A stretch of DNA of 64,000 nt from Candidatus Microgenomates bacterium (GCA_049519355.1 JBEKQV010000003.1:83646-147645); one strand, 5' to 3'. Positions 19,990 through 64,000 are shown, counted from the stretch's first letter. Program-made: numbers and translations. Notes: generated by a model from the letters alone, not told the origin.

Positions 19990-21498
19990 TTAATTTCCAA
20001 ATATCTCCTCTGCAGCTTTAATTATATCTTTATCTTTTCCTTCAGTCAAAACAGTTTTCACTTCCGCCTCCACAATCACCTTTTTGGGAGGAGGATCGAT
20101 AAGCGTACAAACAACCTTAGTTGGAGATTGGAATACTTTTGCGACCACATCCTCCAGAACTTTTCTGTGATTGGCGTCCTCAAGACGTTCCTTATGAAAT
20201 TTATAATAAACACCTAAAGTCAAAACTTTTCCGTCAAAGGCCATGGGCCTTGCCGCCCTGAGAAGTGCTTCGATGGAGGCATTAATCGGCTTAACCAAAG
20301 CCAAAATATTCTTCCAGGCTTCGTCGTTTACGCTCCCGCCAGTCAGAAAATCGGCGGACTGTATATGTACTTCCTCAATTGAAGCGCTTTTACCCGGCTG
20401 ACCGCTGACCGCGCCGGCGTCAGGATGTGGGTTTTGTTCCGGACGAACTGACTCTCGCCGGTCTTCCTCTGCCTCACCACACCATTTTATAACTGCAATT
20501 TCCAGCGGCATTTCTTCAATCGGAGAGGTGGAAACTTCCTCTAATGCTCCCGAAAGAAGTTCAATTAAATCAATCAAGCTTTCTTTACTTAGCTGTCCCA
20601 GCTCATCAGTACCAATTCCAACTTTTGCCAAAAGCGCCACTCTTAGTTTTCGAAGCAATGCCTCAAGAAAGTTATCGATGGATACTCCTTTAACGCTCAA
20701 CTTTCCGATCTCTTCTATCAAACTTTTTGTGTCCTTTTTAATCAGAAGTCCGATAAATTTGTCCAGATCAAAAGCTTTTTTCTTAAAAAGAAATTCTTCA
20801 AGAAATTCTTTTGTGAGATCTTTTTCTTCAGCCACCAACTGCTCCAAAATTTTTATCCCGTCTCTGAACGAACCATCTGATGCTTCGGCAATAACATTAA
20901 GGGTGTCGGAATCTATCTTAATTTTTTCACCCGTTACAACTCTTTTAAGTGATCTAACGATTTCTTCGGAAGTTGCCTTTCGGAAAGGAATATAAGTAGT
21001 TCTTGAACGGATTGTTTCTATCAGTTTTTCGGGGTTAGTTGTGGCCAAAATAAAAATAACATGTTCCGGAGGCTCTTCTAAAGTTTTAAGAAGTGCATTA
21101 CTGGCCTCTGTGGTCAACATATGCGCCTCATCAATTATGTAAATTTTTTTCTTTGCGGAAACGGGGCTTAGTTTAACCGCATCCCTTAAAATCCTGACGT
21201 CATCGATACCTCTATGGCTTGCGGCATCCATTTCAATTACATCCAGATTATTGCCGTTTGTAGTCGAGGTACACTCCTTACATTTATCGCAAGGTGTACC
21301 GTCTTTGCCTAAGTTTTCGCAGTTAATTATTTTTGCCAAGATTCTGGCGGCCGAAGTTTTTCCCGTTCCCTTAGGCCCAGCAAAAAGAAAAGCGTGTGGA
21401 ATACTTTTCTTTGAAACTATTTTTTTGAGGGATTCGCCAACGTCGCTTAAATCGAGTTCATCCAAATTTTTCGGCCGGTATTTTAAATAAAGAGTCAT
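19990..21498 (-). CDS. dnaX: DNA polymerase III subunit gamma/tau
   Basis: AAA+ Walker A GPKGTGKTS, Zn module CENLGKDGTPCDKCKEC, sensor motifs. Confidence 0.85.
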   Translation of the reverse strand: MTLYLKYRPKNLDELDLSDVGESLKKIVSKKSIPHAFLFAGPKGTGKTSAARILAKIINCENLGKDGTPCDKCKECTSTTNGNNLDVIEMDAASHRGIDDVRILRDAVKLSPVSAKKKIYIIDEAHMLTTEASNALLKTLEEPPEHVIFILATTNPEKLIETIRSRTTYIPFRKATSEEIVRSLKRVVTGEKIKIDSDTLNVIAEASDGSFRDGIKILEQLVAEEKDLTKEFLEEFLFKKKAFDLDKFIGLLIKKDTKSLIEEIGKLSVKGVSIDNFLEALLRKLRVALLAKVGIGTDELGQLSKESLIDLIELLSGALEEVSTSPIEEMPLEIAVIKWCGEAEEDRRESVRPEQNPHPDAGAVSGQPGKSASIEEVHIQSADFLTGGSVNDEAWKNILALVKPINASIEALLRAARPMAFDGKVLTLGVYYKFHKERLEDANHRKVLEDVVAKVFQSPTKVVCTLIDPPPKKVIVEAEVKTVLTEGKDKDIIKAAEEIFGN

Positions 21499-21884
21499 TC
21501 TTCGTGATGAACGCCCATTAGGTGCAACGCCCCGTGTTCAATTAACTCGTAAATCCTTTCATTTATCAAAACATTTTCCTGTTGAGATTCTTTAACAGCC
21601 AGCGGATAGCAAACAATAATTTCTCCCAGATGAATTATCCCATCCGGCGGAAAAACAAAACTAGCTTTGGCCTCGTTTGGGACAAACGAGAGTACATTAT
21701 GAAGTTTTTTGTCCTTCAAATATTTTGCCCCGACTGCCATCATTTTTTTCTCTCCAATAATCGCCACAGAAACCTCGGCGTCGGAAACGATGCCGTTTTT
21801 AGCCAAGAATTCGGCTAATTTTTTCTTGACCGCCGGTATATTAACCGGGTAGTTAGACTGTTTGCTTACGGAGACTTTAATCAT
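21495..21884 (-). CDS. ybeY: rRNA maturation endoribonuclease YbeY
   Basis: 129 aa with the HGALHLMGVHH metal-binding motif (H-x3-H-x5-H) at the C-terminus. Confidence 0.7.
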   Translation of the reverse strand: MIKVSVSKQSNYPVNIPAVKKKLAEFLAKNGIVSDAEVSVAIIGEKKMMAVGAKYLKDKKLHNVLSFVPNEAKASFVFPPDGIIHLGEIIVCYPLAVKESQQENVLINERIYELIEHGALHLMGVHHEE

Positions 21885-57114: not shown

Positions 57115-57127
57115 CAGGAGAAAAGCT

Positions 57128-57391
57128 ATGATAGAATTTTGTAAAATACCCGGTTATTATCCGGGACATATGGGAGAAGGGCCTAATTCATTAGGGCCGG
57201 GTGCAGTAGATCCTAAAGCACGTGCGATTATCGCCGATGCGGTCAGGAGAATTAATGAAGAATACCAACAAAGCGCGAGACAATTCTCGTCTACTGTTAC
57301 CAGGGTTACCGGAACAGCCGAAGCAGACCGTGCAGCCGGTCAAATGCTAAAACCACCTACTTCATTTATGAAAAAGGGAAGCAGAGGTTGA
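57128..57391 (+). CDS. Questionable small ORF (87 aa) in the rplA-rplJ spacer, with a good SD (AGGAG 8-9 nt upstream)
   Basis: The ORF has an upstream SD, but the region is GC-rich and dense in hairpins (CCCGGTTATTATCCGGG; GGCCTAATTCATTAGGCC), so it may be leader RNA rather than protein-coding. Confidence 0.2.
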   Translation: MIEFCKIPGYYPGHMGEGPNSLGPGAVDPKARAIIADAVRRINEEYQQSARQFSSTVTRVTGTAEADRAAGQMLKPPTSFMKKGSRG

Positions 57392-57421
57392 CATATTGGT
57401 CCGGCTGTCAGATAATACCTA
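57388..57421 (+). promoter_or_regulatory. Sigma70-like promoter for rplJL: TTGACA-18-ATAATA
   Basis: gaggTTGACAtattggtccggctgtcagATAATAcc. Consensus -35 and near-consensus -10 about 100 nt upstream of the rplJ ATG. Confidence 0.45.
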
Positions 57422-57483
57422 GGTCCGAAGAAAGTATGTTTTCCGAAAGGATGTAAACCATACCGAGGCAAAGTTTAGATTAT

Positions 57484-57508
57484 GCGCGCCTCGGGCGCGT
57501 TTTTTTTT
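57484..57508 (+). terminator. Intrinsic-terminator-like hairpin (GCGCGCC-TCG-GGCGCG + T9) in the rplJ leader; candidate L10-leader attenuator
   Basis: GC stem of 6-7 bp followed by TTTTTTTTT, ending 12 nt before the rplJ start codon. Confidence 0.45.
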
Positions 57509-57520
57509 GGATAAATCAAA

Positions 57521-58076: not shown

Positions 58077-58484
58077 ATGGCAGAAGAATCAAAGAAAGTA
58101 TCAGAAAAAGTAGAAAATATCGTTTCCGATGTTGCAAAACTTTCCGTAATGGAGTTGTCCGAATTGGTCGGAGCCTTACAGGAAAAGCTAGGAGTTTCCG
58201 CAGCTATGCCGGTTGCCGCAGCAGCGGCCCCAGCTACGGCAGGAGAAGCCCCGGCGGCTGATGCAGGCAACGCAACCCAAACTGTTGTTATGACAGGTTC
58301 GGGTGCCAATAAAATTGCTGTTATTAAGGCTTTGAGGGAAATTAATCCCAATTTAACCTTAATGGATGCAAAAGGCATGACCGAAACACTCCCCGCAGAA
58401 GTTTTGAAAGACGCTAAGGCGGAAGACGCCAAAAGCGCTTCAGAAAAACTGAAGGCAGCCGGAGCAACTGTTGAGCTAAAATAA
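58077..58484 (+). CDS. rplL: 50S ribosomal protein L7/L12
   Basis: N-terminal dimerisation helix, Ala/Pro hinge AAAAPATAGEAPAA, C-terminal domain KIAVIKALREI...LKAAGATVELK. Confidence 0.9.
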   Translation: MAEESKKVSEKVENIVSDVAKLSVMELSELVGALQEKLGVSAAMPVAAAAAPATAGEAPAADAGNATQTVVMTGSGANKIAVIKALREINPNLTLMDAKGMTETLPAEVLKDAKAEDAKSASEKLKAAGATVELK

Positions 58485-58516: not shown

Positions 58517-58541
58517 TCCCGCTTAATACGCGGGATTTTTT
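58517..58541 (+). terminator. Rho-independent terminator after rplL
   Basis: TCCCGC-ttaatac-GCGGGA followed by TTTTTT. Confidence 0.6.
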
Positions 58542-58654: not shown

Positions 58655-60346
58655 TTAAATTATATGAAGTATTTGGCCTATGTTTTGACCCGCTGCCAGC
58701 CCGGCTTTTATTTTAGGCCATACAACTTTCGCCGTAACCATTTTTGGCTCCTCTACTTTTGTCAAGTCTAAAAGGCCAAGTTTTTCCAAATCAAAAACCG
58801 AAAACAGATCCAATCCGGCAACATAAACCAAGTTTGATATTTCTGTTCCCCGATTATCCTCAGACATAAGGAAATCCAATACAGTCTCTTGTTCGATATA
58901 ATCAATTGCATCCGAAGTCGGTGCATAACCGCTCGCATCGGTTAGCGGAGTGTTTCTCCTAAATATCCGCATCGCCCTTCTAAAGGAATTATCTACGGCT
59001 TCCTGAAATTTGTCTTTGTCTTCAAATAGACTTTTTAGCGGCACTCCAAAATTTCTTTCTGAATAAAGGTCCGCAATGGCCAGAAAAACATCCTTAAAAC
59101 TTCCGCCCGCCATTTTACTTTCCAACCCGGTAAAAAAGTAAGGTTCCGCTCTTCCTTTCATCCCCGCAACCATTTCTTGTGTTTTACCTTCGATATACAT
59201 TGCGGCTCCTTCCGAAAGAATGCCTGTTCTGCCCATCGATTTTTGTTCAAACAACTTTAACGAAACAGGTCCGGCCAGCTCCTTGTTTACATGCCGCAAG
59301 ACATGCCCTTCGATCTCGTGGGCTAAAACCGTCAAAGTATCAACCAGTCCCCTTTCAAAATTTTTCGGGATAGCAATTTTTCTGACCACATCAGAACCGG
59401 ATTTATACTGAACCGCCAAAGTAGACCTGCCGTCTTCGATAACCACATTCCACTTCCGGTCTCCCGAATTAAGTCCATATTCATTAAGAACCATTTCCGC
59501 CAGTACCTTCGCCTGTCCGGAGTTTACCAATACCGAGTTAAACTTCCGGTACTCCGGAGTTTCTATGGGTAATTCCGCTTTCCTTTTTGATGCATATTGA
59601 CGGAGCCGCCCGGGAATACTTTCAAACATTCCTTTGGCGTTAAATTCCGACCCAATTCCATTGAGAAAATGGTCTATTCTCTCCAGCTTCCTCGAATCCA
59701 CTCCCTCATTTTCATAAAGATTTGCAAGTGCCACATTTACTCTTTTCCTGTAAATATTTAAGATTACGCTTTGTCCCTCAAAAAAATCTCCATTATTTCC
59801 GGATTGGGAAATTTCTTTTTTTAGCTCGGCCTTAAGAATCCTGAGATTTTTAATTTCTTCGGCAAGGTCTTCGGGATCAACAACTCTTTTAATTCTTACG
59901 GGATTTTCAACTCCGCCTACATCTCCTTTTGATGCAATCAGTTCTTCCGTAAATTTATTTTTTGCCCACTCATAAGAAAAATCATGAGCTTTTTCCCTTT
60001 TATCTTTGGGAATCTTCGATAAATCCGCTTCCATAAAAATTCTCTCGATGTCCTTTGCGTCAACCTCGCCTAAACGCGGCGTCTCCTTACCGCCTAAATA
60101 GATGTCGGTAAAAAGTTTCTTCCCTTCTTCGGTTGTAAAAGCTCCTGGGTAAATTGTATGCTCCGTAATTTCAAAATGTGTGGCTCTCTCATATTTGGTA
60201 AAAAGCCCTTCCTCGAAAACTTTCAGCCGGACTTTTTCATCCAATGACAACTCCAGGGGCTTAACGGCTAATAACGATTCCATATTTCCAACAGCTTCTG
60301 AAGCTCTCAGAGGGTACGAATAATCGGATTCTGTAGTACCGCTCAT
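58655..60346 (-). CDS. HExxxH metallopeptidase-like protein, inferred DUF1704 / MATCAP-like (gluzincin carboxypeptidase family)
   Basis: 563 aa. LAHEIEGHVLRH (H-E-x-x-x-H spacing) and, ~40 aa downstream, GILSEGAAMYIEG resembling the QEGLA Glu-ligand motif of DUF1704. It is the last gene of a tight operon with three ATP-grasp ligases. Confidence 0.45.
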   Translation of the reverse strand: MSGTTESDYSYPLRASEAVGNMESLLAVKPLELSLDEKVRLKVFEEGLFTKYERATHFEITEHTIYPGAFTTEEGKKLFTDIYLGGKETPRLGEVDAKDIERIFMEADLSKIPKDKREKAHDFSYEWAKNKFTEELIASKGDVGGVENPVRIKRVVDPEDLAEEIKNLRILKAELKKEISQSGNNGDFFEGQSVILNIYRKRVNVALANLYENEGVDSRKLERIDHFLNGIGSEFNAKGMFESIPGRLRQYASKRKAELPIETPEYRKFNSVLVNSGQAKVLAEMVLNEYGLNSGDRKWNVVIEDGRSTLAVQYKSGSDVVRKIAIPKNFERGLVDTLTVLAHEIEGHVLRHVNKELAGPVSLKLFEQKSMGRTGILSEGAAMYIEGKTQEMVAGMKGRAEPYFFTGLESKMAGGSFKDVFLAIADLYSERNFGVPLKSLFEDKDKFQEAVDNSFRRAMRIFRRNTPLTDASGYAPTSDAIDYIEQETVLDFLMSEDNRGTEISNLVYVAGLDLFSVFDLEKLGLLDLTKVEEPKMVTAKVVWPKIKAGLAAGQNIGQILHII

Positions 60347-60388
60347 GTTTATATATTACTCTTTTACAGGCTTTAAAAAGGCAAGTTC

Positions 60389-61330
60389 TTAAGAAAATAG
60401 CGATTTTAAGATGTCTTTTGTGGCATCATATTGGTGCCCCTTAGAGTCCATCCAATGCAAATCATAACCCGGATCTGTGTTAAGTTCGATTATGCAGTAC
60501 GGAGAATTTGCCTTAGTTATATCGGGGCAAATTATGTCTACACCCGAAAACCGGAGGTCAAAAAGTTTAACCGCACGCAAAACCATCTCCCTAAATTTGG
60601 GATTAACAATATTTGTTACATCCTCCACCACTCCGCCGGTGTGAATATTTGCGTTTCTTCTCATCAAAATCTTTTTTCCTTTGGAGGGAATATCGTTTAT
60701 TGTTAGATTCTGCTCCGCCAAAACTCTTTCGACTTCAAAACCCAACTTTAATGAATCTCCTCCCCGGCCGATATTATATTTGGCAACAAGCTCAGAAATT
60801 TTTGTTTTTCCGTCTCCGATAATAGCCGGCGGGACACGTCTGGCAACCGCCAAGATTTTTCCGTCAAGAACCAGGAAACGGAAGTCCTCACCCGGAAAAA
60901 ACTCTTCCACCAAAACCTCATCATAACTTTCCCGTATTTTTTCAAAAGCTTTTTTTAAAACCTCAAGATTTTCAATTTTGACAATTGCCATTTTTCCACC
61001 CAGTGAAGTATCCGGTTTGGTGACCAAAGGAAAATTTATTTTGCCGGTTTTTATTGCGGCCGAAACTTCTTTCCATTCTCCCGTTAAAATTCCTCTTGGC
61101 GCCGGGAAACCTGCATCTCTAAGAACCCTTTTTGTTAAATCTTTCCTTTTAACAATTTCAAAGTCGACTATCGAGTTAAAAGGAAAATGCTTGCCGATTG
61201 TCAAAACACTTTTACCACCTTTTGATATCTTGTAGACTCTACGGTCGGACGGATAAACCTCAACCAAATATCCCAATCTTTCGGCTTTTTCAGCAAAAAC
61301 CTCCATCAGCATTTTGTGTTTGGTTTTCAT
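60389..61330 (-). CDS. ATP-grasp ligase, cyanophycin-synthetase-N-domain-like
   Basis: 313 aa. FPLVTKPDTSLGGKMAIV, VLVEEFFPGEDFRFLVLDGKILAVARRVPPAIIGDGKTKISELV (CphA-like RVPA..GDG segment), IIELNTDPG. Confidence 0.55.
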   Translation of the reverse strand: MKTKHKMLMEVFAEKAERLGYLVEVYPSDRRVYKISKGGKSVLTIGKHFPFNSIVDFEIVKRKDLTKRVLRDAGFPAPRGILTGEWKEVSAAIKTGKINFPLVTKPDTSLGGKMAIVKIENLEVLKKAFEKIRESYDEVLVEEFFPGEDFRFLVLDGKILAVARRVPPAIIGDGKTKISELVAKYNIGRGGDSLKLGFEVERVLAEQNLTINDIPSKGKKILMRRNANIHTGGVVEDVTNIVNPKFREMVLRAVKLFDLRFSGVDIICPDITKANSPYCIIELNTDPGYDLHWMDSKGHQYDATKDILKSLFS

Positions 61331-62220
61331 AAATTTATGAGAAATTTTAAAATCTCCCTTTCAACATTGAAACCCGTGTCTCTTTTAATCGAGTTCCACT
61401 TGGGCGCCGAATTTACCTCCAAAACAAATAATTTTTTATTTTTGGTTTCCAAAATATCTACCCCCGCAATATCAATAGATAATGCTTTTGCGGCTTTTTC
61501 CGCCATACTAGAATACTTAGACGGAACTTTTTTGTAAGAACGATTTGGGGGAAGTTCTTTAGAAAATCTATTCACCCAACGCTGCGGACGAACAATAGCC
61601 GCTTTTGCTTTTTCGCCAATTACAAATACTCTAATTCTTATACTCGCCTTAATAAATTCCTGAACAATAAACCGCTCACATGTCAACTTGCGGGCTTTAA
61701 GTTTTTTGACAAGCTGGGCTAATTCCGATTGATTTCCCGGCGACCAGACCGCCCTTCCCCTTTTACCGTTAGTCCCTTTAACAACAAGAGGAAAACCAAT
61801 TTTATCCGGGGCTTTTGTAACCATCCGGCGCAAGGTCATAAACATCGTATGCGGAACAGGCACTCCACTTTCATAAAGAAGCATTGTTTCCAATCCCTTC
61901 GGCAGCGGAAGCTTAACAAACTCAGGTTTCTCATATAATCTATCCACTATCCTTATACCTCTCCTTTTGGCATAGTCGGCAACGATGGCAGCATTTTCCG
62001 TGCTATCACCCAGAAGTCTGAAATATATGACACCAAAGTCGGCTAGATTCCTATCGCCAATTTTTATAGACGATCCTTTGCCGGCAGACTCAATATCATA
62101 TTCGAGATCGCTAAAGGCCGCTATTTTCAGGTCGGTGCCAAGAACTTTTGCCTCCTTTGAAAACGCGGAAAGATTACTGACTTTTCCTCCCGTTAAAATT
62201 AAAATTTTCTTGTTTTTCAT
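61327..62220 (-). CDS. RimK-type ATP-grasp ligase (alpha-L-glutamate ligase family)
   Basis: 297 aa. FPLVVKGTNGKRGRAV, FIVQEFIKASIRIRVFVIGE, GVDILETKNKKLFVLEVNSAPKW. Small N-terminal pre-ATP-grasp domain as in RimK. Confidence 0.75.
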   Translation of the reverse strand: MKNKKILILTGGKVSNLSAFSKEAKVLGTDLKIAAFSDLEYDIESAGKGSSIKIGDRNLADFGVIYFRLLGDSTENAAIVADYAKRRGIRIVDRLYEKPEFVKLPLPKGLETMLLYESGVPVPHTMFMTLRRMVTKAPDKIGFPLVVKGTNGKRGRAVWSPGNQSELAQLVKKLKARKLTCERFIVQEFIKASIRIRVFVIGEKAKAAIVRPQRWVNRFSKELPPNRSYKKVPSKYSSMAEKAAKALSIDIAGVDILETKNKKLFVLEVNSAPKWNSIKRDTGFNVEREILKFLINL

Positions 62221-63506
62221 TCTGAATTTGGGTTAACCAAAAAACCCGCCATATCGCTTCTACCCATCAAAAATCTGTTTGACATCTTTGACCTATCCGT
62301 GACCGAAACAAAGGATTTGATTCTTTTGCCGGCAACGACATATTCCACTCCTATGACAGGCCTTGCCTGCAATCCGCCGGCGGAGCGGTATTTATCTCTC
62401 CACAAGATATTTCCCTTAACCAAAAGTCCCAATTCTTCGGCAAGTTTCTTATCTATTGAACTCCTTACGGCACCTGTATCTACCCTCGCCATAACTTTAA
62501 CCCTCTTGGATTTGTCAAAACTGTAGACCTTAATTCCCTCCAAACCTTTAAGAGTTTTAATACCTTCCTCAACCGCTCTTCTATTCTCAAACCTTCCGGC
62601 AAAAAGAGCTTTGGCGATCATAACTCCATGTTCCGCATCGGTAACATTAAGATCTTCAACCCTTTCAAGCCTCTTTTTAAGACCTTCCATATTGGCAAGT
62701 TGTATCTGAAGCCCGGGTTGTGCGTTAAGTTCCAACACCATGGGACCCTTATCGGGATGAAGCACTATATCTACTCCTGCATAACCCAACCCCGAGGCAA
62801 TTTGGGCCCGTACCGCAGTCTCCAAAATGGCAGTCCAATTGGGTATTTTTATTCCTCGGAGTTTCCTCTCCGTCCCGGGTTTGAATACAATTTGCTCTCC
62901 GTGCCAAATGGCGGTTGTGGTAATTCCCGTTGCAATGTCTACTCCGACTCCAATGGCACCTTGGTGCAAGTTCGCCCTTCCTCCACTCTCTTTTGTAGGC
63001 AAACGAAGCATCGCCATAACCGGAACTTTGTTAAAAACGATTATCCGAATATCCGGAGTCCCCCGGTATGCCCATCTCCTAAAGACTTTTGCGCGGCCGA
63101 CATATTCCTGAACGAAAGCCACATCCGGAACATTTCCCATAGAGAAAGCGCCTTCCAATATATCAAGTGTATGAAGCTTAAGATCATCAATTTTTACGCG
63201 TGTTTTCTGGGTAGTCATCCAGCCGCTATCCTTGAGCTTTTTTTTGACAACAATGATTCCCTCTCCACCCATACCGCGACTTGGCTTCAGGGCAAATTCA
63301 TCGGGAAGCGTGTTCCAATCAAACTCATAGACATCATTAGGATTCATAAACCTCTTATAAATTGCAGGGTGAGGAACTTCAGCCTTTTTGAGTACTCTTG
63401 CGGTCTGAATTTTGGAATCGGCGATAGCCTTACCACGCCTGGAATTATACCTGTAGGCAAAAAGCTGGGTTCTGGAATTCAATCCCAAAATTGAGGATAT
63501 TTTCAT
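62217..63506 (-). CDS. Fusion: ATPgrasp_ST (alpha-L-glutamate-ligase-related) ATP-grasp domain + C-terminal retropepsin-like aspartyl-protease domain (RimK-associated Zn_protease family)
   Basis: N-terminus LGLNSRTQLFAYRYNSRRGKAIADSKIQTARVL...FALKPSRGMGGEGI. C-terminal ~110 aa VKVMARVDTGAVRSSID...FLMGRSDMAGFLVNP with the D-T-G-A catalytic signature. Confidence 0.65.
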   Translation of the reverse strand: MKISSILGLNSRTQLFAYRYNSRRGKAIADSKIQTARVLKKAEVPHPAIYKRFMNPNDVYEFDWNTLPDEFALKPSRGMGGEGIIVVKKKLKDSGWMTTQKTRVKIDDLKLHTLDILEGAFSMGNVPDVAFVQEYVGRAKVFRRWAYRGTPDIRIIVFNKVPVMAMLRLPTKESGGRANLHQGAIGVGVDIATGITTTAIWHGEQIVFKPGTERKLRGIKIPNWTAILETAVRAQIASGLGYAGVDIVLHPDKGPMVLELNAQPGLQIQLANMEGLKKRLERVEDLNVTDAEHGVMIAKALFAGRFENRRAVEEGIKTLKGLEGIKVYSFDKSKRVKVMARVDTGAVRSSIDKKLAEELGLLVKGNILWRDKYRSAGGLQARPVIGVEYVVAGKRIKSFVSVTDRSKMSNRFLMGRSDMAGFLVNPNSE

Positions 63507-63511
63507 AATTT

Positions 63512-64000
63512 TTAACTCCGGATGAGCTTTCTAAATCTGTAGAATTCCATTACCCTGAGTCCGGTATATTTACCCAAAATCAGATCCGCCGCCGCAACCA
63601 GAATCAGAGAAACCTCCGGATTAAGAAGAACATATTGCTGCAAGGGTTGGAATGTTAGGAACAAGAATGAAATTAAAGACAAAAGAAGTGTCTCAAAAGT
63701 TAGATTTAAGGCGGTTTTAACGCTTTTACCAAGCTGTACTCTGGTAAAGTCCTCTGCCAAAAGCACCAGGAAAAGAACGGCGAAGATAGAAACGTTGGCA
63801 AGGTCCGAAAAATTAAGAACCGGCGCTAGGAATAGAACCCCCAAAACCCCGAGGACCACAGCCCAAAGAATGAACGCCATCCTCGGCAGATATTGGAGCT
63901 TGACCTTAAGCTTCCTGAGAATCATCCTCATGGCAGTTGAGACGACTACAATAACCAGGAAAAGTCCGATTCCGACGATTGGACCTGTCGCTACAAAAAC
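63512..64000 (-). CDS. Partial: C-terminal region of a polytopic membrane protein, candidate 7TM_transglut-type protein; the ORF continues beyond the right window edge
   Basis: The frame stays open to base 64000 (…VFVATGPIVGIGLFLVIVVVSTAMRMILRKLK…). At least 4 TM helices, then YTGLRVMEFYRFRKLIRS*. 5-bp gap to the ATPgrasp_ST gene. Confidence 0.4.
   Translation of the reverse strand, partial: VFVATGPIVGIGLFLVIVVVSTAMRMILRKLKVKLQYLPRMAFILWAVVLGVLGVLFLAPVLNFSDLANVSIFAVLFLVLLAEDFTRVQLGKSVKTALNLTFETLLLSLISFLFLTFQPLQQYVLLNPEVSLILVAAADLILGKYTGLRVMEFYRFRKLIRS

Follow-up and report, generated by a model that had tools for sequence, protein, structure and literature searches.

A five-gene cluster of ATP-grasp ligases, peptidases and a membrane protein in a Candidatus Microgenomates bacterium and its relation to rlo systems

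The five minus-strand genes at the end of a 64,000-nucleotide stretch of DNA from a Candidatus Microgenomates bacterium (GCA_049519355.1, JBEKQV010000003.1:83646-147645; the whole stretch is called the window here) were analysed by sequence, structure and gene-neighbourhood comparisons. Open reading frame (ORF) calling on the window DNA showed that these tightly packed genes span positions 58655-64000, and they encode a seven-transmembrane (7TM) protein, three ATP-grasp ligases, one of them fused to a retropepsin domain, and a MATCAP-like metallopeptidase. With a probability of roughly one half, the locus is an expanded, rearranged and previously undescribed relative of the rloBC/rimKB-type systems, namely a ribosome-independent peptide-ligase operon with a membrane partner, and it would, at the same rough odds, use ATP to build an acidic peptide chain at the membrane and trim it both from within and from the end. 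The core would consist of the 7TM protein and a cytoplasmic RloC-type ligase bearing its own retropepsin domain, and the accessory part, variable in relatives, of a RimK-family ligase, a ligase resembling the G domain of cyanophycin synthetase, and a long zinc carboxypeptidase of the MATCAP family. The core is already known as rlo; what is new is the fused cytoplasmic retropepsin, a 7TM protein without a transglutaminase domain, the extra ligases, and an unannotated long-form MATCAP relative. An earlier reading of the window, made from the sequence alone, had suggested a writer/eraser system for peptide tags or the synthesis of a peptide polymer, and this idea is still the most reasonable reading.

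The features of the cluster, in window positions and with lengths in amino acids (aa), are as follows.

58655-60346, minus strand: 563-aa ORF, MATCAP-like, a putative long-form MATCAP/DUF1704-family zinc metallopeptidase (HEIEGH at 59303-59320, SEGAA at 59201-59215)
60389-61330, minus strand: 313-aa ORF, CphA-like ATP-grasp ligase
61327-62220, minus strand: 297-aa ORF, RimK-family ATP-grasp ligase, 4-bp overlap with each neighbour
62217-63506, minus strand: 429-aa ORF, ATPgrasp_ST ligase plus retropepsin
62607-63506, minus strand: RloC-type ATP-grasp domain, residues 1 to about 300 of the 429-aa protein
62220-62534, minus strand: retropepsin domain (RimB/RloA-like), residues about 325-429 of the same protein, C-terminal to the ligase
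63512-64000 and past the window end, minus strand: 3' part (last 162 codons) of the 7TM gene, 7TM_transglut

From the 563-aa gene upward, the junctions are a gap of 42 base pairs (bp), two 4-bp overlaps and a 5-bp gap, which bears out the earlier description of five minus-strand genes with 4-bp overlaps or gaps of at most 45 bp. The catalytic motifs singled out at that stage for re-inspection (HExxxH/EGAA and DTGA) are all present in the DNA.

Domain composition of the five proteins

The 429-aa protein matches ATPgrasp_ST (PF14397, 4.5e-66) and TIGR02291 (alpha-L-glutamate ligase-like, 4e-80; 269 bits, below the 314-bit equivalog cut-off), has the Mg-binding ExN motif as ELN at residues 259-261, and carries neither a transmembrane (TM) segment nor a signal peptide. 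Its C-terminal domain matches PF05618 (Zn_protease/RimB-like; 6.4e-6, 26.6 bits, slightly below the Pfam cut-off of 27 bits), RloA3 (NF052264, 6.9e-6) and Asp_protease_2 (1e-3), and the catalytic DTGA was re-read from the DNA at 62469-62480, corresponding to residues 343-346. The proposed fusion of an ATPgrasp_ST ligase to a DTGA retropepsin-like domain was therefore confirmed (PF14397 4.5e-66; PF05618 6.4e-6), and the fusion also occurs at 13 related loci. DTGA, a Lys or Arg at position -2, R382, R405 and a GR motif are kept in 14 fusion proteins. The retropepsin domain, whose isoelectric point (pI) is 10.3, aligns weakly with the RloA crystal structure 9G59 (E 0.024) over a region that takes in DTGA and two Arg positions, R382 and R405 aligning with arginines of 9G59; from this weak alignment we infer that they correspond to the poly-Glu-binding residues of RloA. 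The fused ligase has more than 5,500 homologues at E<=1e-10, and the best 120 are all of the type found in the Candidate Phyla Radiation (CPR), about 430 aa long and 70-100% identical.

The window ends within the 7TM gene, and the partial protein matches PF14402 (7TM_transglut, 8.5e-17) and RloB (NF052267, 2.7e-11), in agreement with the partial 7TM protein recognised earlier. The same locus is present on 21 contigs, among which contig L001 is identical to the window in the overlap region and supplies the DNA beyond the window end. The full gene (L001:5966-6835) has 289 codons and reaches about 64381 in window-equivalent coordinates. Its product comprises an N-terminal signal/TM-like segment, about 70 aa on the outside made up of a Pro/Thr-rich linker and a conserved segment, and the 7TM_transglut domain. 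The full-length protein matches PF14402 at 2.5e-26 and covers NF052267 at positions 312-507 of 508 only (64 bits, cut-off 900); since the match is confined to these positions, the inactive-transglutaminase domain is absent. The best 120 of 392 CPR homologues are all 160-284 aa long and contain PF14402 alone. The structure model of a 92%-identical homologue (pLDDT 79) gave no informative structural neighbour.

The 297-aa protein has the full-length fold, pre-ATP-grasp domain included, and matches RimK (PF08443, 4.6e-22) and TIGR00768 (1.3e-36; 126 bits, cut-off 143). It is about as near to MptN (3e-31) and LysX (3e-30) as to RimK, it scores only 52 bits against the RimK equivalog PRK10446 (cut-off 331), and its nearest solved structures are LysX 1uc8 (1e-14) and RimK 3vpd/4iwx. 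Its ExN motif is EVN at residue 268. The 313-aa protein matches cyanophycin synthetase (TIGR02068, 4.4e-62) only at positions 204-471 of 862, with 210 bits against a cut-off of 850, and matches the C-terminal ligase of GshAB nearly as well (8e-51); in the PDB it matches cyanophycin synthase 7wac (7e-39) and GshAB 3ln6 (2e-30), and its ExN motif is ELN at residue 282. By these profile scores, the 297-aa protein is a member of the RimK family, not a RimK orthologue, and the 313-aa protein is a stand-alone ligase like the backbone-extending G domain, again a family member and not a CphA orthologue. The two earlier labels, RimK-type and CphA-like, thus hold for the families (PF08443 and TIGR00768; TIGR02068 4.4e-62 for the G-domain likeness) but not as orthology, the former protein lying below the equivalog and subfamily cut-offs and the latter at 210 bits against 850. 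The ExN Mg site is intact in all three ligases of the cluster; none of them has a TM segment, and all are very basic (pI 9.3-10.1).

The 563-aa protein, which has no signal peptide or TM segment, contains HEIEGH and SEGAA, both re-read from the window DNA, and E379 in SEGAA is the predicted third zinc ligand. Searched directly, it had no match in Pfam, NCBIfam or PDB sequences even at E<=10, PF08014 and TIGR02421 included, and a 16-sequence profile of its family gave only chance matches against PDB sequences. Because the direct searches fail, tying the protein to MATCAP needed transitive matches, hhalign and a structure model. A word-indexed search returned 16 homologues, two of which match PF08014 (MATCAP, formerly DUF1704) at 3.9e-7, and H343, E344, H348 and E379 are invariant across all 16. 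With hhalign, the 16-sequence profile aligned to a canonical DUF1704/'QEGLA' protein (which itself matches PF08014 at 1.6e-21 and TIGR02421 at 2.5e-25) over 231 columns at 96.5% probability and an E-value of 9.6e-10; HEIEGHVLR is identical in both and SEGAAM lies opposite EEGIAL. The AlphaFold model is of good confidence (pLDDT 85, pTM 0.81), and we read the protein as having a MATCAP-type catalytic domain at residues ~273-537 and an N-terminal helical region of ~270 residues. In a Foldseek search of the PDB, human MATCAP was the only match at E<=0.001 (best 2.6e-4, probability 1.0), and the next match, at 1.5e-3, was also MATCAP. The model is similar to the channel-type carboxypeptidases (DUF885, M32 and MATCAP), and as a whole, extension included, it covers more residues of DUF885 and M32 carboxypeptidases than of MATCAP.

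On the transitive matches, the profile-profile alignment and the fold model, we place the 563-aa protein in the MATCAP/DUF1704 zinc-carboxypeptidase family as a predicted member. Its earlier description as an HExxxH metallopeptidase-like protein accordingly stands (HEIEGH, SEGAA and this placement). The profile searches recommended earlier thus put the three ligases in ATP-grasp families but yielded no direct DUF1704 match for the peptidase. The hallmark of the MATCAP family is a degenerate HExxxH followed by an E-G (EEG or QEGLA) third ligand (PMC13522474, PMC10499314), and the eukaryotic MATCAP/TMCP enzymes trim acidic C-terminal tails and shorten poly-Glu chains (PMC10499314). The long-form profile found 743 cluster representatives at E<=1e-3 among 1.84 billion, and these long-form relatives of about 600 aa are a real but small, unannotated separate group. 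The 563-aa protein is identical to a hypothetical protein from a Candidatus Microgenomates metagenome-assembled genome. Full-text literature searches returned nothing under the Pfam names and only unrelated work under 'DUF1704'; as far as the searchable literature shows, the cluster is the first genomic context for bacterial MATCAP relatives.

Conservation and co-occurrence in related genomes

A scan for long MATCAP-like genes in one genome per GTDB species gave 20 loci (numbered with the prefix L, as are all related loci and contigs below), of which 17 are of the long form (L005-L021); one of these lies on a contig too short to judge, leaving 16 informative. Seven have the full cluster, with the 7TM gene, the ATPgrasp_ST-retropepsin gene and one to three RimK-like or CphA-like ligase genes followed by the MATCAP-like gene, and they come from Patescibacteria, Microgenomates, Moranbacteria and Bdellovibrionales. 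The co-occurrence expected from the sequence-only reading was therefore observed, the cluster recurring in seven other species-level genomes of Patescibacteria and Bdellovibrionales. Four further loci, in Saccharibacteria, Abawacabacteria and Peribacteria, pair a RimK-like with a MATCAP-like gene. Overall, an ATP-grasp ligase adjoins the long MATCAP gene in 11 of the 16 informative loci, and a CofE-like gamma-glutamyl ligase does so in a twelfth, while no ATP-grasp gene is adjacent in the canonical DUF1704 neighbourhoods L022-L024. The tie of bacterial MATCAP relatives to amino-acid ligases suggests that the ancestral job of the family was to trim enzymatically added acidic tails.

Two long MATCAP-like genes have flanks of their own:

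L020:8703-11876: between a CofE-like F420-0:gamma-glutamyl ligase gene (PF01996) and a dihydrofolate reductase (DHFR) gene
L009:5926-9305: in tandem with a canonical PF08014 MATCAP gene

The 7TM and RloC-retropepsin genes are neighbours in 13 of 13 related loci examined, and this core adjoins rplL in eight related genomes. In six sampled neighbourhoods of the fused ligase, the 7TM and ligase-retropepsin genes always converge on rplL and the later genes differ, being a RimK~CphA-like fusion, two or three RimK-like ligases, AAT/C45 with RimK and DUF3541, a C26-like GATase, or a methyltransferase. MATCAP-containing relatives also have additions, namely an extra GNAT gene in L006 and an extra DUF3541 gene in L008. 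The variable slot after the core genes is occupied in relatives as follows.

L027:8295-11105: AAT/C45
L008:8065-9078: DUF3541
L029:9915-10769: GATase/Peptidase_C26-like
L006:9493-9975: GNAT
L030:8220-8834: methyltransferase

DUF3541, which occurs twice in this slot, may be another editing enzyme. The closest relative sampled (L025, core ligase 85% identical) has the RimK-family and CphA-like ligases as one 613-aa fusion (L025:8290-10131).

Identities were calculated by comparing each relative that shares the rplL position with the window. The ATP-grasp domain of the fused ligase is 68-88% identical (81-88% in all except L005) and the 7TM protein 65-91%, against 59-91% for L7/L12, L10, L1 and L11 at the same loci. 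Taken over the Microgenomates-type relatives, the range is 66-91% for the 7TM protein and 81-88% for the ligase. Identities are 43-78% for the retropepsin domain, 26-60% for the RimK-like ligase and 38-39% for the MATCAP-like protein. The 7TM and ligase core is thus as conserved as the adjoining ribosomal proteins and the downstream genes are variable, which argues for a strongly constrained core and a fast-changing editing and extension module. The window holds one of the fullest versions of the cluster. CPR genomes are smaller than 1 Mb and have shed most biosynthesis; in such small genomes, the fixed locus and the ribosomal-protein-level conservation of the 7TM and ligase pair point to an important, unstudied function.

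Some other genes recur ahead of the 7TM gene. One, a small HTH_17/MerR-like gene of 72 aa, is found there at L001:4059-4277, L027:5803-6021, L029:2892-3110 and L030:2678-2896, and a 97-aa HTH_17 gene (L024:6110-6403) overlaps a canonical MATCAP-family gene by 4 bp; the HTH_17/MerR-like gene may encode a dedicated regulator. A divergent ABC exporter (ABC_membrane and ABC_tran) lies directly upstream of the 7TM gene at L028:550-2235, L029:3153-4817 and L030:3094-4824, with a Peptidase_M32 gene near the exporter in L030. Neither the exporter nor Peptidase_M32 is present at the window's own locus.

Comparison with known systems and proposed function

The trio of 7TM-transglutaminase, ATPgrasp_ST and retropepsin, which the sequence-only reading took for conserved and uncharacterised, is now the rloABC operon of Pseudomonas aeruginosa (Lormand et al., mBio 2025, PMC12239564), so the second of these adjectives no longer applies. 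RloA proteins are secreted retropepsins with a positively charged channel that cut runs of at least 8 Glu, and both RloA and RimB cut poly-Glu (PMC12239564). A triple rloA mutant is misshapen and sensitive to hypo-osmotic conditions and beta-lactams, and deletion of rloB or rloC suppresses this phenotype, implying that the RloC ligase and the RloB 7TM protein make or deliver what the proteases remove (PMC12239564). Of the reported RloB matches, 96% are from Proteobacteria (PMC12239564).

The locus studied here shares the three protein families (RloC with ATPgrasp_ST/TIGR02291, RloB with 7TM_transglut, and RloA with PF05618 containing DTG), and its ligase and 7TM genes are likewise adjacent and co-directional. 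It differs in that the retropepsin is fused C-terminally to the ligase and has no signal peptide, whereas RloA is separate and secreted; in that the 7TM protein, at 289 aa against about 508, is without the periplasmic inactive-transglutaminase domain; and in the two ligases and one metallopeptidase appended to it and the CPR host. The earlier choice of the trio as the core was therefore right as to the families but not as to a straightforward rlo operon, the retropepsin being fused and cytoplasmic and the transglutaminase-like domain missing. Natural rlo variants of this kind, with a fused protease, no transglutaminase domain and swappable editing enzymes, could help resolve the product of RloC and the role of RloB.

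With RimK/RimB (RimABK) the locus has in common an ATP-grasp enzyme of the alpha-L-glutamate ligase family that works alongside a cytoplasmic poly-Glu-trimming retropepsin, ligase and protease being physically associated, here by fusion. Unlike in that system, the retropepsin is joined to a RloC-type and not a RimK-type ligase, a membrane partner is present, RimA is absent, and the RimK-family gene falls under the equivalog and subfamily cut-offs. RimK itself extends ribosomal protein S6 with Glu at its C-terminal Glu-Glu. The 563-aa protein shares with MATCAP/TMCP (KIAA0895L, KIAA0895) and with bacterial DUF1704 'QEGLA' proteins (PF08014, TIGR02421) the gluzincin fold, HExxxH and the downstream E-G ligand, but it is extended N-terminally by a helical region of about 270 aa, gives no direct PF08014 or TIGR02421 match, and is encoded inside a ligase operon. 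The 313-aa protein, like the G domain of cyanophycin synthetase CphA1 and the C-terminal ligase of GshAB, consists of an ATP-grasp domain of the type that extends a peptide at its C-terminal carboxylate; CphA1, in contrast, comprises N, G (ATP-grasp) and M (Mur-ligase-like) domains, and the 313-aa protein is a single domain without N or M. A pairing of ligase and MATCAP is also suggested in Gammaproteobacteria (Vibrionaceae) by published annotation: at low salinity, Photobacterium damselae induces RimK 52-fold, the 'GshB'-annotated RS17020 38-fold, and the consecutively numbered RS17025, of the QEGLA/MATCAP family, 27-fold (PMC10308900). This induction parallels the hypo-osmotic phenotype of rlo mutants and is side evidence for a possible osmotic link.

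In the proposed mechanism, the three ligases would act at the cytoplasmic face of the membrane, activating a terminal carboxylate as an acyl-phosphate and adding amino acids singly, so that a chain with alpha linkages, probably rich in Glu/Asp, would grow on a free peptide or at the C-terminal end of an acceptor. The retropepsin, presumably dimeric and positively charged, would cleave within long acidic runs, and the MATCAP-like enzyme would take residues off the C-terminal end, so that the balance between ligases and peptidases would set chain length and end residue. The 7TM partner would then pass the product to the cell envelope or anchor it there. The analysis itself establishes which domains are present, that their catalytic motifs are intact, how tightly the genes are packed, and their conservation and co-occurrence, whereas we infer the amino acids used, the chemistry, the acceptor, the export step and the physiological role, which by analogy with rlo may be envelope or osmotic homeostasis. 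For each component, relatives that have been characterised work on acidic C-terminal chains; among the ligases, RimK and the G domain of CphA add to a C-terminal carboxylate. The three ligases match ATP-grasp amino-acid ligase families at very low E-values, and acidic substrates would suit the basic pI of the ligases and of the retropepsin domain.

Several observations weigh against this mechanism. The RloC/ATPgrasp_ST family has no enzyme with a known product, so the acidic nature of the chain rests on analogy. No ORF of at least 30 aa with an acidic C-terminal tail was found in or near any cluster. The variable slot in relatives holds GNAT, methyltransferase, C45/AAT hydrolase, C26-like GATase or DUF3541, a pattern that speaks at least as much for a small peptide, defined and decorated, as for a homopolymer. 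Conservation falls far below that of the core in the retropepsin domain (43-78%) and in the accessory genes (26-60%), and the closest relative (L025) has no MATCAP-like gene.

The same ligases and peptidases could instead form a cytoplasmic writer/eraser of a protein C-terminal tail in the style of RimK/RimB on S6, in which the ligases would put Glu on a cytoplasmic protein, ribosomal or other, the retropepsin and the MATCAP-like enzyme would remove the tail, and the 7TM protein would only tether or regulate; we consider this unlikely, and less likely than an acidic chain at the membrane. In its favour, the cluster includes a RimK-family ligase of full length, the ligases are all basic, every Microgenomates-type relative examined has the cluster next to nusG-rplKAJL, and the retropepsin, joined to a ligase and lacking a signal peptide, resembles the cytoplasmic RimK-RimB complex more than secreted RloA; MATCAP-family enzymes, moreover, work on protein C-termini (PMC10499314). 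Against such a tail cycle, the genes are convergent to rplL with a hairpin between the units, the score against the RimK equivalog is 52 bits where the cut-off is 331, and the core ligase has a membrane protein as its invariant partner. Close relatives also differ in how many accessory ligases they have and of which type, which would be odd for a fixed ribosomal target, and no S6 gene is encoded in the window.

Also less likely than an acidic chain at the membrane, and improbable in our estimate, is an assembly line for a defined small non-ribosomal peptide, or for a peptide side chain carried by a metabolite or by a precursor of the cell wall, to which each ligase would add one residue before a hydrolase matured or recycled the product and the 7TM protein flipped or exported it. 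For the RimK-family gene, the scores against MptN, LysX and CofF, whose substrates are cofactors or carrier proteins, come close to that against RimK, and the CphA-like gene is equally near to glutathione-type ligases. Relatives have one to three accessory ligases (two to four ATP-grasp ligases in total) together with GNAT, methyltransferase, C45/AAT and C26-like GATase tailoring genes, three of them have a divergent ABC exporter upstream, and one long MATCAP-like gene lies between a CofE-like gamma-glutamyl ligase and DHFR. However, the combination of a conserved core with varying accessories argues for one common chemistry with variable editing, not for different products. F420 or methanopterin synthesis, moreover, is not known in CPR bacteria. 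The altered cell shape and beta-lactam sensitivity of rlo mutants (PMC12239564) speak for an assembly line; against it, the related retropepsins that were tested, RloA and RimB, need acidic runs of at least 8 Glu (PMC12239564), for which a tri- or tetrapeptide is too short.

Synthesis and turnover of a cyanophycin-like storage polymer is very improbable. The 313-aa protein does match the G domain of the synthetase (4.4e-62; PDB 7wac, 7e-39), but the match is limited to positions 204-471 of 862, there is no cyanophycinase in the cluster, and the CphA-like gene is an optional accessory that several relatives lack. This reading was rejected because the N domain and the Mur-ligase-like M domain, which adds Arg, are absent. 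A role in anti-phage defence is not supported, since PADLOC gave no match.

An extension of the acidic chain at the membrane, which we regard as doubtful, would make the 7TM and RloC-retropepsin pair a near-universal, housekeeping-grade pathway of Microgenomates-type CPR bacteria that makes and exports a poly-alpha-glutamate-like anionic peptide for homeostasis of the envelope or of osmotic conditions, with the long-form MATCAP proteins as dedicated C-terminal deglutamylases. If true, the operon would provide a prokaryotic pairing of ligase and carboxypeptidase that prefigures the tyrosination/glutamylation cycle of eukaryotic tubulin, in which ATP-grasp TTL/TTLL enzymes are the writers and MATCAP is the eraser.

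Genomic setting and neighbouring genes

The genes nusG-rplK-rplA-rplJ-rplL lie on the plus strand and end at 58484, so the ribosomal unit and the ligase unit converge. Between them lies one further feature:

58517-58535, no strand assigned: GC-rich hairpin tcccgcttaatacgcggga, between the convergent stops of rplL (plus) and the peptidase gene (minus)

The hairpin is followed by T6 on the plus strand and by AATTTT on the minus strand, making it a candidate shared terminator by consensus; promoter and terminator consensus counts in general do not exceed shuffled expectation. Because of the convergent orientation and the intervening hairpin, there is no co-transcription with rplL to be expected. 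The sequence-only reading had put the cluster where rpoBC is expected. No ORF of rpoB or rpoC size occurs in the window or the next 10 kb, and the siting beside rplL holds, but the arrangement is a lineage-wide convergent synteny, without sign of co-transcription. At gathering thresholds, Rfam gave no RNA family within or beside the cluster.

A gene beyond the window (L001:4873-5877), 89 bp ahead of the 7TM gene, encodes a 334-aa, acidic (pI 4.8), single-TM protein with no family match and no homologue at any related locus. It was not counted as a member of the system, and it may be strain-specific.

The only ORF in the window ending in Glu-Glu encodes 129 aa (21495-21884, minus strand; ...LHLMGVHHEE). 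RimK-type ligases extend Glu-Glu termini.

The rplA-rplJ spacer (57115-57520) is unusually long, at about 400 bp, and gave no Rfam family at gathering score, L10 leader included. It contains an 87-aa ORF (57128-57391) that is gene-called on related contigs without being conserved in sequence, and a GC hairpin with T9 lies just 5' of rplJ; the spacer may be a lineage-specific leader or attenuator. The adjoining L1 gene (56323-57114, 263-aa ORF) encodes a Lys/Glu-rich N-terminal extension of some tens of residues ahead of the usual L1 domain.

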